Source of the DNA: a virus
Lineage: Duplodnaviria; Heunggongvirae; Uroviricota; Caudoviricetes
Strand: one strand, 5' to 3'
Virus record (IMG/VR): IMGVR_UViG_2925939204_000005
DNA: 25,688 bases
This document shows, piece by piece, positions 4,770 through 22,671 of this stretch. The stretch's first letter is position 1. The number at the start of each line of letters is the position of its first letter. The position numbers and the translations under genes are program-made. Under the pieces are notes generated by a model. The model did no database searches. It saw only the letters and a list, made by a program, of their open reading frames with translations, and was not told the origin of the DNA.

Positions 4770-4827
4770 AAAAACGGCGGCAGAGCAGTCACGGAGTAAA
4801 ACTGATACCGCCAAACGTCACCAGAAA
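4770..4827 (-). ncRNA. dicF: DicF small regulatory RNA (ftsZ-targeting antisense sRNA)
   Basis: Reverse complement of 4770..4827 reads TTTCTGGTGACGTTTGGCGGTATCAGTTTTACTCCGTGACTGCTCTGCCGCCGTTTTT, matching the remembered DicF sequence including the terminal GC-rich hairpin plus U-run; sits between ydfC and dicB. Confidence 0.85.
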
Positions 4828-11331: not shown

Positions 11332-12073
11332 TTTACTCTCCAAACACTCAAAAAAAAGCTAATCTTCTATAATAACGAAATTCAGCTGGCACAATTAAAG
11401 ATTAATTGCCACCAATTTCTTGATTTTATAATTTTATCTAAATGTTTTTGATTAATCTAGTCCTAAAAGAAACCTACTGCATAAATATTTATGCTGATGA
11501 CCCACTCCCTGTTCGTTAACACATAGCAACGTTAGTAATGCATCCTAAGTGATCAATATTTTTGCTAGCTTCATCTGCTCGCTCAAAGGGAACTATAATG
11601 TTGGCTTGCGTGTGACTTGGCATGTTTAAAGAAGTGCTGGTGGTGACTGGTTGCTGTTTTCCATTTCCACAGAACAAAATCATAGAAACTATACCCAGTA
11701 GTTGTATTGAATCACTGACGAGACAGCCTCATATTTATCAGGACTGGTGTACGTCCAATACAGGAGGTTGTGGTGCTGGTTCTCAAATGTGCGCTGGCTA
11801 TTGCTGCTGTAATGGCAATTTATTGTCTTGCTGTTGTTCTTATGGATCACCTTTCTGATTGATTTCATATTGGCGAGGTAACGGTAGTTAAGTAGAATTG
11901 CTGCGGGTGCTTGAGGCTATCTGCCTCGGGCATCAACACCAAAGGCAGATAGAGAAAAGCCCCAGTTAACATTACGCGTCCGGCAAGACGCTTAACATTA
12001 ATCTGAGGCCATATCTATGCTCTACACACGTAGGTTAGCCTCTTACGTGCCGAAAGGCAAGGAGAAGCAGGCT

Positions 12074-12229
12074 ATGAAGCAGCAAAAGGCGATGCTAATC
12101 GCCCTGATCGTCATCTGTTTAACCGTCATAGTGACGGCACTGGTAACGAGGAAAGACCTCTGCGAGGTACGAATCCGAATCGGCCAGACGGAGGTCGCTG
12201 TCTTCACAGCTTACGAACCTGAGGAGTAA
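12074..12229 (+). CDS. hok: Hok-family type I toxin (51 aa; HokD/RelF-like)
   Basis: MKQQKAMLIALIVICLTVIVTALVTRKDLCEVRIRIGQTEVAVFTAYEPEE: single TM helix followed by the conserved Hok periplasmic tail; AAGGAGAAG SD upstream. The ORF-track start at 12017 is an in-frame upstream extension. Confidence 0.85.
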   Translation: MKQQKAMLIALIVICLTVIVTALVTRKDLCEVRIRIGQTEVAVFTAYEPEE

Positions 12230-12298
12230 GAGACCCGGCGAGGGAGAAATCCCTCGCCACCTCTGATGTGGCAGGCATCCTCAACGCACCCGCACTTA

Positions 12299-12329
12299 AC
12301 CCGCTTCGGCGGGTTTTTGTTTTTATTTT
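12299..12329 (+). terminator. Rho-independent terminator downstream of hok
   Basis: AACCCGCTTCGGCGGGTTTTTGTTTTTATTTT: GC-rich hairpin (CCCGC/GCGGG) with a TTCG loop followed by a T-run. Confidence 0.65.
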
Positions 12330-12445
12330 CAACGCGTTTGAAGTTCTGGACGGTGCCGGAATAGAATCAAAAATACTTAAGTAGCGCGCAGGGATAAGAG
12401 GGATGGTCCCTTAAAGGGGAGAGCTAATTATCCGGAAGGATTCTG

Positions 12446-22090: not shown

Positions 22091-22671
22091 TGGCATTCAG
22101 AATGAGTGAACAAGCACGGACCATAAAAATTTATAATCTGCTGGCCGGAACTAATGAATTTATTGGTGAAGGTGACGCATATATTCCGCCTCATACAGGT
22201 CTGCCAGCAAACAGTACCGATATTGCACCACCAGATATTCCGGCAGGCTTCGTGGCTGTTTTCAACAGTGATGAGGCATCGTGGCATCTCGTTGAAGACC
22301 ATCGGGGTAAAACGGTTTATGACGTGGCTTCCGGCGACGCGTTATTTATTTCTGAACTCGGTCCGTTACCGGAAAATGTTACCTGGTTGTCGCCGGGAGG
22401 GGAATATCAGAAGTGGAACGGCACAGCCTGGGTGAAGGATACGGAAGCAGAAAAACTGTTCCGGATCCGGGAGGCAGAAGAAACAAAAAACAGCCTGATG
22501 CAGGTAGCCAGTGAGCATATTGCGCCACTTCAGGATGCTGTAGATCTGGAAATCGCAACGGAGGAAGAAATCTCGTTGCTGGAAGCCTGGAAGAAGTATC
22601 GGGTGTTGCTGAACCGTGTTAATACAACAACTGCACCGGATATTGAATGGCCAGTAGCACCTATAGGGTAA
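22090..22671 (+). CDS. Tail fibre assembly protein Tfa (193 aa)
   Basis: ATG overlaps the stf stop (TAATG); conserved C-terminal motif [29 protein letters not shown]. Confidence 0.85.

Follow-up and report, generated by a model that had tools for sequence, protein, structure and literature searches.

An apparently complete hok/mok/sok toxin-antitoxin locus of the hokD/hokW subfamily in a defective Qin-like prophage of Escherichia coli

Positions 11870-12329 of the window (the whole analyzed stretch of 25,688 nucleotides, IMG/VR virus record IMGVR_UViG_2925939204_000005) most likely encompass a complete type I toxin-antitoxin locus, hok/mok/sok, that belongs to the hokD/hokW subfamily, an assignment to which we attach a probability of about 0.9. 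The locus is an ordinary full copy of the hok/sok module, which is already known. It is located in an E. coli genome matching strain 165, within a Qin-like defective prophage that contains IS insertions and whose terminase and lysozyme genes are truncated. In strain 165, the identical DNA is labeled hokD in RefSeq, with no annotation for mok, the Sok RNA or the regulatory elements. An earlier note, made from the letters of this DNA, had proposed an autonomous hok/sok-type module with a structured leader, and this proposal is borne out by the presence of an own promoter, tac, ucb, mok, dcb, fbi and a Sok gene (Table 1; tac, fbi, ucb and dcb as defined in PMC9841398). The same note pointed to a comparison with R1 and the chromosomal hok loci and to folding of the mRNA ends: the comparison located mok, the Sok target, fbi and tac, and in the predicted fold the 5' tac pairs with the 3' fbi, a pairing that covaries across 39 related loci.

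The leader matches the Rfam family RF01794 on the hok strand, over the full model (positions 1-157), with 114 bits (gathering score 59) and E = 1.4e-25; the corresponding scores are 118, 110 and 84 bits for hokC, hokB and hokE of K-12, respectively, 87 bits for R1-type hok and 113.5 bits for hokW of the prophage Sp5. The predicted fold of the full-length mRNA has a minimum free energy (MFE) of -177.3 kcal/mol (z = -7.9). Using a single Hok protein as the query, we collected related loci; across the 39 distinct ones, 88-90% of the cells are paired, versus 40-52% when the partners are slid, and 13-15 pairs are altered on both sides, with the observed values reached in none of 500 shuffles. As an ensemble, the RF01794 E-value, the fold z-score and the pairing over the 39 loci are far beyond chance. 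Every sequence element in Table 1, the predicted folds, the covariation and the near-identity to an experimentally validated locus are shown by the present analysis.

Table 1. Elements of the hok/mok/sok locus (positions in the window)
Feature	Coordinates	Strand	Remarks
hok promoter	11870..11898	+	-35 TTGGCG (11870-75), 17-nt spacer, -10 TAGAAT (11893-98)
Full-length hok mRNA	11905..12322	+	~418 nt; predicted ends
tac (translational activator)	11905..11916	+	GGGTGCTTGAGG; pairs with fbi in the full-length MFE fold
Metastable 5' hairpin of the nascent transcript	11906..11934	+	nt 2-13 paired with nt 19-30, 12 bp
Perfect 10-bp hairpin	11917..11952	+	inner helix of the tac stem-loop
Sok antisense RNA gene	11949..12025	-	predicted, ~77 nt; both ends putative
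ucb / anti-SD AAGCCCC	11957..11963	+	pairs with tac (open form) and with the mok SD (closed form)
Long hairpin (Sok terminator on the opposite strand)	11964..12004	+	~19-nt insertion compared with hokC, hokB and R1
mok Shine-Dalgarno (SD) GAGG	12005..12008	+	invariant in 39 loci; 8 nt before the ATG at 12017
mok reading frame	12017..12229	+	70 codons; in frame with hok, common stop codon
sok promoter	12032..12060	-	-35 TTGCCT (12060-55), 17-nt spacer, -10 TAACCT (12037-32)
dcb GCCTC	12038..12042	+	partner of the mok SD once the mRNA is processed
hok Shine-Dalgarno AGGAG	12060..12064	+	strong; 9 nt before the hok ATG
hok (hokD-type) toxin gene	12074..12229	+	51 aa, stop included in the coordinates
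3'-UTR hairpin	12237..12258	+	GGCGAGGG...CCCTCGCC; homologous to R1 GGCGGGC...GCCCGCC
fbi (fold-back inhibition)	12279..12291	+	CCTCAACGCACCC
Rho-independent terminator	12298..12329	+	stem 12298-12315, then T-run

Judging from an alignment to the hok leaders of R1 and K-12, the 5' end of the hok mRNA would be at 11905, the nucleotide that corresponds to position 1 of the RF01794 model, and the predicted 3' end follows from the terminator. The latter had been described as strong in the earlier note, and its stem comprises 7 bp, including 5 GC pairs, followed by TTTTTGTTTTTATTTT. Other Rfam hits to the region 12233-12319 (isrK, rsmX and others) are below the gathering scores and were rejected as reflecting only the generic terminator hairpin. 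The tac/fbi duplex has an energy of -21.5 kcal/mol at the offset typical of the family, and in all intact relatives fbi lies 45-50 nt past the hok stop codon. At pair 4 of this duplex, 25 loci have UA and 12 have CG, and a G to A change at tac position 12 is matched by a C to U change in fbi. The column counts for tac/fbi under-count the 3' half in the Photorhabdus loci, because a bulged C is absent there and shifts the alignment by one column; the duplexes computed for each of these sequences show full pairing. One E. coli copy (L010) with a diverged 5' end, GACTGCATGTGG, which was kept in the alignment, has no convincing fbi partner and is probably degenerate.

At the 5' end, a 36-nt RNA folds in silico into the metastable hairpin with -21.4 kcal/mol (z -5.2, ensemble frequency 0.95), which also makes up the 5' part of the MFE fold of the first 146 nt. 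The 10-bp hairpin noticed previously is perfect, with CTATCTGCCT at 11917-11926 complementary to AGGCAGATAG at 11943-11952, and each arm can be lengthened to 21 nt (11906-26 and 11943-63), with 76% complementarity. The inner arms are CTATCTGCC/GGCAGATAG in the window versus CTTTCTGCC/GGCAGAAAG in R1. Given that the window contains 38 inverted repeats of at least 10 nt within 60 nt, the 10-bp repeat taken alone is within chance; over the 39 loci, 91.5% of its cells are paired and 3 pairs are altered on both sides. The pairing of tac with ucb appears in folds of 3'-shortened and short RNAs, and this helix is 98% paired in the 39 loci. The MFE structure of the 146-nt RNA includes the pairs G55-C105, C56-G104, C57-G103 and C59-G101 between ucb and the mok SD, which are conserved in the relatives. 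The helix formed by the mok SD and dcb belongs to the RF01794 consensus, is likewise 98% paired and almost invariant, and its hairpin energy ranges from -11.8 to -13.5 kcal/mol across 16 variants. Because tac/ucb, ucb/mok-SD and mok-SD/dcb, although 98% paired in the 39 loci, are nearly invariant, they contribute little evidence from covariation. In the MFE folds of the 3'-shortened mRNA (11905-12275 and 11905-12263), the tac/ucb stem appears, but the remainder of the fold has ensemble frequencies of at most 0.003 and was given no weight, and the textbook open form is not cleanly reproduced. The 3'-UTR hairpin is 94% paired, with 3 pairs altered on both sides, and under the R1 model (PMC9841398) would be the point at which the processed mRNA ends.

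The predicted Sok RNA aligns with the annotated sokC, sokB and sokE of K-12 and with the R1 region. Its fold (-31.8 kcal/mol, z -4.65) consists of a terminator hairpin, with 15 bp followed by a U-tract, and a free 5' tail that is complementary to the region from the mok SD to the ATG. The insertion of ~19 nt that lengthens this hairpin recurs in hokD-type loci from E. coli, E. albertii, Shigella and Kluyvera, accompanied by compensatory changes; the extended hairpin of the hokD/hokW subfamily could alter the stability of Sok. The earlier note held that no sok promoter could be assigned by eye. One can be assigned on the minus strand, by homology rather than by consensus: its position is homologous to that of the sok promoters of R1 (TTGCGC/TATCCT) and of K-12 sokC, sokB and sokE, and the stretch is identical to the Sp5 sokW promoter. 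By consensus it is weak, with 7/12 matches (4/6 and 3/6 in the two hexamers), and our consensus promoter scan did not pick it up.

The mechanism that we propose is modeled on plasmid R1 by homology, and each of its sequence requirements was checked in the window. A moderate promoter would give rise to a stable hok mRNA, the 5' end of which would be locked by the metastable hairpin in the nascent transcript. In the finished mRNA, tac would pair with fbi and the ucb box would mask the mok ribosome-binding site, so that the RNA would be neither translated nor bound by Sok. Slow 3' trimming to the 3'-UTR hairpin would then remove fbi, upon which tac would switch to ucb, exposing the mok SD and the Sok target. 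Sok, a short, unstable antisense RNA predicted to run on the minus strand from about 12025 to 11949, would pair with the SD/start region of mok, block translation of mok and therefore the coupled translation of hok, and trigger cleavage by RNase III. Should Sok synthesis stop, because the element is lost or the prophage is induced, the processed mRNA would be translated and the 51-aa Hok peptide would damage the inner membrane. The relevant properties (synthesis and instability of Sok, mok-mediated repression of hok, the RNase III step and activation of the mRNA by 3' processing) have been shown for R1 (PMC9841398 and references therein) and in part for the near-identical hokW-sokW (PMC8621323). 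For the locus in the window, the ends of the transcripts, the processing of the mRNA at its 3' end, the expression of Sok and the toxicity in the strain are predictions of this model.

The hokW-sokW locus of the Sakai prophage Sp5 (E. coli O157:H7) belongs to the same subfamily and is also prophage-borne, with mok in frame and 70 codons long. The two loci are identical in the hok -10 hexamer, tac, the inner stem of the hairpin, ucb, the long Sok hairpin, mok SD, dcb, sok promoter, hok SD and fbi; between +1 and the hok ATG, the leaders differ only in 2 loop bases and in a 20-nt patch (12010-12029; 7/20 nt different) that covers the Sok 5' end and mok codons 1-5. HokW differs from the Hok protein of the window in 5 residues, 4 of which are within the C-terminal eight, and Sp5 lacks the terminator hairpin that follows fbi in the window. 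The gene is located near the right end of Sakai Sp5 (ECs_1245), and a search of the early and middle parts of Sp5 found no hokW. This locus behaves as a toxin-antitoxin system of type I: the sokW and hokW RNAs are seen on northern blots, HokW is toxic, sokW protects, and phage release falls by half upon deletion (PMC8621323). In contrast to Sp5, an inducible Stx2 phage, the prophage in the window is a defective Qin-like element, and the role of hokW in phage release may not apply to the window locus.

Among the K-12 loci, hokC (gef)/mokC/sokC has the closest leader, with the same tac sequence, an annotated sokC that aligns with the predicted Sok, and the annotated mokC in frame with hokC, the same layout as in the window. 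It differs in its short Sok hairpin without the ~19-nt insertion and in the sok -35 hexamer (TTGACC), and fbi has been removed in K-12 by an IS186 insertion. The experimentally dissected paradigm, hok/sok (parB) of R1, has every named element, with order unchanged and spacing similar (promoter, tac, ucb, SokT, mok SD, mok, dcb, sok promoter, hok SD, hok, 3' hairpin and fbi). Unlike the window locus, it is plasmid-borne, its mok is out of frame (58-nt spacing), and a long insertion lies in its first hairpin, within the loop, rather than in the Sok hairpin.

An intact anatomy does not imply activity, because intact chromosomal hok loci have been reported that do not cause post-segregational killing: a preprint (bioRxiv 10.1101/2025.08.07.668861) summarizes this for hokA (E. 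coli C), hokB (K-12) and hokC (ECOR24). Thus, the locus might look complete and yet be a functionally silent fossil that is weakly or never transcribed and never kills, a possibility that would fit the defective state of the host prophage and the weak consensus match of the sok promoter. We regard it as unlikely, given that all the elements, including the non-coding ones, are nearly invariant over many independent copies and the helices covary, which indicates ongoing selection on the RNA structures. Moreover, the near-identical Sp5 hokW-sokW is active (PMC8621323), and expression of the HokD coding sequence causes toxicity (bioRxiv preprint).

The toxin gene reported in the earlier note is present, with correct coordinates. 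Its 51-aa product matches the Pfam family HOK_GEF (PF01848) with 79 bits (cut-off 22) and PHROG 251, 'MokW-like host killing' (E = 2e-32), and is 98% identical to HokD of K-12 (T36I), 90% to HokW and 39% to Hok of R1. The upstream ATG described in that note is also there, 19 codons before the hok ATG, and opens a 70-aa frame, which scores 46 bits against the NCBIfam Hok model, under the 73-bit cut-off, whereas the Pfam match passes. This frame is designated 'MokW' or 'MokC' in phage and Sakai records, and in several records it is the only one annotated; it shares its stop codon with hok, and the in-frame spacing of 57 nt is kept in 12 of the 16 hokD-type loci. On these grounds, the actual product could be an N-terminally extended Hok instead of a regulatory mok plus the 51-aa protein. 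That the extended form is the sole product is, however, quite improbable. In 4/16 close relatives, as well as in R1, mok is out of frame (58-nt spacing), the ATG is lost in one relative, and mok codons 2-5 are hypervariable, so that the extension is free of protein-level constraint. Furthermore, hok has a strong SD of its own, the Pfam and PHROG profiles span just the 51-aa part, and HokW was examined, and found toxic, as a 51-aa protein (PMC8621323).

The hok promoter has 9/12 consensus matches in a promoter scan, with +1 near 11905. Its -10 hexamer is conserved in position in five reference loci, aligning at the same distance from +1 with TATGAT (R1 hok), TATAAT (hokC), TAGGAT (hokB) and TAAGAT (hokE). 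On the upstream side, the two closest annotated genes run in the opposite direction, which makes read-through from annotated genes unlikely. Just upstream of the locus, we noticed a conserved, unannotated ORF on the plus strand (11773-11862) that encodes 29 aa and is hydrophobic. This small ORF ends 8 nt before the hok -35 hexamer, and some read-through into hok is therefore possible; nevertheless, expression of hok solely by read-through from upstream genes, as in the relBEF operon of K-12, with the leader structures being incidental, is very unlikely in view of the promoter with its conserved -10 hexamer, the opposite orientation of the annotated neighbors, the homology among independent copies that often starts at ~11885, just upstream of the -10 hexamer, the covarying leader and the lack of relBE.

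The contrast with hokD (relF) of K-12 that the earlier note had drawn is real: homology with K-12 extends only from 12060 onward, and K-12 hokD has no RF01794 match. Both loci belong to the same chromosomal prophage, with the same downstream genes, rem and DUF968/ydfU, and K-12 retains the hok SD, fbi and the terminator. In K-12, however, relB-relE takes the place of everything upstream of 12060, with the junction ~14 nt before the hok ATG and hokD as the third, distal gene of relBEF; thus, every upstream element is missing there, namely the hok promoter, tac, ucb, the mok start, the Sok gene and the sok promoter. Neither the window nor the identical region of strain 165 contains relBE, and the relBEF arrangement was not encountered in them. 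As a new finding the contrast does not hold, since the truncation of K-12 hokD by rearrangement is already on record (PMC12214031, with reference to Pedersen & Gerdes 1999) and the commoner form in E. coli is the complete one, present in 3927 of 5426 complete E. coli genomes compared with 1173 for the K-12 junction.

A separate observation concerns the patch at the Sok 5' end (12010-12029), which is hypervariable: among the 16 distinct loci there are 10 alleles, and the median number of differences is 8 in 20 nt. The patch spans the 5' recognition tail of Sok, the first five mok codons and, in the mok-SD/dcb hairpin, both the loop and the 5' arm. The leader around it and the coding sequence hardly vary, and the energy of the hairpin is kept across the variants. 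Tentatively, and at somewhat less than even odds, the patch may act as a specificity code, subject to diversifying selection, that would bar cross-neutralization among co-resident prophage loci of the hokD/hokW type.

The importance of the locus beyond correct annotation is small. The K-12 hokD, the textbook case of a toxin without an RNA antitoxin, is a minority truncated allele, and the Qin-type prophage normally carries the full hok/mok/sok module, of which RefSeq annotates the hok coding sequence only. Therefore, studies of the function of hokD, of persistence or of prophage stability in natural isolates should assume the presence of a cognate Sok, and the allele-specific 5' end of Sok may bear on cross-talk between multiple prophage copies.

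The earlier note described a 51-aa Hok ORF, an upstream in-frame ATG that opens a 70-aa frame into hok, a 10-bp hairpin and a strong terminator after hok. All of these are present in the sequence: the hairpin arms are perfectly complementary, and the terminator consists of a GC-rich stem followed by a T-run. Using the definitions of the plasmid R1 hok/sok paradigm (PMC9841398), we aligned the locus with R1 and chromosomal reference loci, and every named element could be placed, including mok, tac, fbi and the Sok-target hairpin (see the table). The Rfam model RF01794 covers 11905-12079 from its first to its last position, with 114 bits and E = 1.4e-25 (gathering score, 59); on the hok strand, the same model scores 87 for the R1-type plasmid locus, 118 for K-12 hokC, 110 for hokB, 84 for hokE and 113.5 for hokW of the Sakai prophage Sp5. 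Although RF01794 bears the name of the sok antitoxin, what it describes is the leader in the hok sense: its matches fall on the hok strand at six loci (the one in the window and the compared loci L003-L006 and L070), and the annotated K-12 sokC, sokB and sokE genes lie on the opposite strand inside these matches. The full-length match and the aligned elements support the proposal of an autonomous hok/sok-type module with a structured leader. Given that the window contains 38 inverted repeats of the 10-bp size within 60 nt, the 10-bp hairpin is unremarkable by itself, and its significance comes from the ensemble of features. We identify the locus, by identity and anatomy, as an R1-type hok/mok/sok locus with a probability of about 0.9.

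Features of the hok/mok/sok locus (alignment, placed by alignment with reference hok loci; homology, placed by positional homology with R1 and the annotated K-12 sokC, sokB and sokE; SD, Shine-Dalgarno)
Feature	Coordinates	Strand	Basis or remark
hok promoter -35 TTGGCG	11870-75	+	alignment
hok promoter -10 TAGAAT	11893-98	+	alignment
hok mRNA +1	about 11905	+	alignment
tac	11905-16	+	alignment
Inner hairpin of the earlier note, arms CTATCTGCCT (11917-26) and AGGCAGATAG (11943-52)	11917-52	+	
ucb/anti-SD	11957-63	+	alignment
Long hairpin, Sok terminator on the other strand	11964-12004	+	alignment
mok SD GAGG	12005-08	+	alignment
mok ATG	12017	+	opens 70-aa frame, in frame with hok
dcb GCCTC	12038-42	+	alignment
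hok SD AGGAG	12060-64	+	alignment
hok, 51 aa, stop included	12074-12229	+	
3' hairpin	12237-58	+	alignment
fbi CCTCAACGCACCC	12279-91	+	alignment
Terminator, stem 12298-12315, then T-run	12298-12329	+	
sok promoter -35 TTGCCT	12060-55	-	homology
sok promoter -10 TAACCT, 17-nt spacer	12037-32	-	homology
Predicted Sok RNA, about 77 nt	12025 to 11949	-	

The 70-aa ORF is best read as mok because the frame is not conserved (R1 and 4 of the 16 close relatives have a mok-hok spacing of 58 nt, out of frame), codons 2-5 of mok are hypervariable among 16 hokD/hokW-type loci, and hok has its own SD. The earlier note held that no sok promoter could be assigned by eye, and a consensus promoter scan did not pick one up; nevertheless, both hexamers can be assigned by positional homology, with only 7 of 12 positions agreeing with the consensus. 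Sok transcription should start near 12025. In the predicted RNA (-31.8 kcal/mol, z = -4.65), an unpaired 5' tail is complementary to the mok SD/start region, and a 15-bp hairpin with a U-tract behind it would serve as terminator. This RNA would be longer than K-12 sokB, sokC and sokE (57-60 nt) because of an insertion of approximately 19 nt within 11964-12004, which in the hokD/hokW subfamily lengthens the Sok terminator/SokT hairpin to about 15 bp and is common to the E. coli, E. albertii, Shigella and Kluyvera loci, with compensatory changes. We adopt the R1-type mechanism as the one by which the locus would operate.

Fold prediction and conservation of the fold-back elements, both raised in the earlier note, point the same way. 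The predicted fold of the first 36 nt is a 12-bp hairpin (-21.4 kcal/mol, z = -5.2) that would represent the metastable structure; at 61 nt the fold is instead a tac/ucb stem around the 10-bp hairpin (-31.2 kcal/mol), and in the first 146 nt the mok SD (GAGGC) pairs with ucb (GCCCC), the closed form. In the minimum free energy structure of the full 418-nt mRNA (-177.3 kcal/mol, z = -7.9), nucleotides 1-12 pair with fbi, with one bulged C. Folds of the 3'-shortened mRNA contain the tac/ucb stem, the remainder being too ill-defined for reliance. With each species represented by a single genome, a scan recovered 54 loci, from Escherichia, Shigella, Kluyvera, Citrobacter, Pseudocitrobacter, Pantoea, Photorhabdus and Erwinia. 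Wherever the 3' end is intact, the first 13 nt find their best partner 45-50 nt past the hok stop. The tac/fbi pairing is maintained by compensation: GGGU with ACCC becomes GGGC with GCCC, GAGG in tac becomes GAGA where CCUC in fbi becomes UCUC, and in hokB U7 is replaced by C, matching a G in fbi. In a 39-sequence alignment, standard pairs occupy 88-90% of the cells versus 40-52% with the partners slid by 1-3 columns, and 13-15 pairs are altered on both sides; none of 500 shuffles attains the observed values. The tac/ucb, ucb/SD and SD/dcb helices hardly vary and are therefore compatible with the model while providing little covariation evidence. In L010, a hokD-type copy from E. coli ECMA0423 (CP178302.1), the 5' end has diverged to GACTGCATGTGG and the rest of the locus is conserved; a search for an fbi partner of this 5' end yielded none that was convincing. 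L010 may be a copy in decay.

In the set of 16 distinct hokD/hokW-type loci, leader variation is concentrated in 12010-12029: the two 10-nt bins there have summed minor-allele counts of 36 and 45, compared with 0-9 in most flanking leader bins (11960 to 12069) and most hok codons. This patch covers the spacer between the mok SD and ATG and the first five mok codons; it corresponds to the first 16 nt of the predicted Sok with their target, and to the SD/dcb hairpin's loop and 5' arm. It has 10 alleles among the 16 loci (median, 8 differences in 20 nt), the energy of the SD/dcb hairpin being held at -11.8 to -13.5 kcal/mol across the variants. CP178302.1 and CP182556.1 carry three copies each, with patch alleles that all differ within the genome. 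The patch may be a specificity determinant.

The Sp5 hokW-sokW locus (ECs_1245 region) is identical to the window over the entire 12030-12075 stretch, and the Sp5 Hok shows 44% identity and 69% similarity to R1 Hok, exactly the values quoted for HokW. HokW is toxic, sokW expressed from its own promoter protects, promoter mutations abolish protection, northern blots detect both RNAs, and without the locus only half as much phage is released after mitomycin C (PMC8621323). The contrast with hokD of the K-12 Qin prophage drawn in the earlier note holds. K-12-type genomes are homologous to the window only from 12060 on, with the relE 3' flank upstream of that point; K-12 hokD retains the hok SD, hok, 3' hairpin, fbi and terminator but has lost the promoter, tac, ucb, the start of mok and the entire Sok gene, promoter included, and RF01794 has no match in K-12 relBE-hokD. 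This loss agrees with the published view, given in the passage of PMC12214031 that cites Pedersen & Gerdes 1999, that hokD was inactivated by genomic rearrangement. Hok codon 36 (12179-12181) encodes Ile, whereas K-12 HokD and most relatives have Thr. The Tyr47 codon is TAC (12212-12214, context TTACGAA); at this position, A-to-I editing by TadA is reported to yield Cys in hokC, hokD (~6% edited) and hokE mRNAs (PMC12214031).

E. coli strain 165 is 100% identical to the window over the 481-base query (11860-12340). The surrounding element is a Qin-like defective prophage that adjoins ynfC-speG-ynfB-ynfA-rspA, with the gene order dicB, DicF RNA, dicA, dicC, then hokD, rem, a DUF968 (ydfU-like) gene and a Q antiterminator. 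IS elements or truncations have disrupted the lysis and terminase genes. Rfam matches to DicF (4775-4826, minus strand, 72.5 bits) and IS009 (22433-22631, plus strand, 229 bits) fit such a prophage. RefSeq annotates only a 156-nt hokD CDS at the locus, and the two nearest annotated genes upstream of hok are on the opposite strand. Immediately upstream is an unannotated 29-aa hydrophobic ORF, MLVLKCALAIAAVMAIYCLAVVLMDHLSD (11773-11862, plus strand), with a GTG start 5 nt past an SD (AGGAGG, 11762-67) and a stop 8 nt ahead of the hok -35. In all five diverse E. coli copies examined the ORF is open and conserved, even where upstream homology ends ~40 nt before its SD; it also adjoins hok in four phages, in none of which it is annotated. 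Searches of Pfam, NCBIfam and PHROG gave no match; the product could be a small membrane protein or a second toxin.

The locus is probably active in this strain, with our confidence lowered because the prophage is defective and post-segregational killing was not mediated by other chromosomal hok loci of intact anatomy, as summarised in a passage of bioRxiv 10.1101/2025.08.07.668861. The complete form is the commoner one in E. coli: at least 80% of 11860-12340 is found in 3927 of 5426 complete genomes, with up to 10 copies per genome, and the K-12 relE-hokD junction in 1173 of this set. The locus also appears in 110 phage records, where the annotation reads MokW, HokD or mok plus hok; the enrichment of hok in prophages (bioRxiv 10.1101/2025.08.07.668861) and an intact hokD homologue in strain NRG857c (PMC7232551) have already been noted. 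The locus is of a standard, widespread and already described kind, the closest relative of which has been experimentally characterised.
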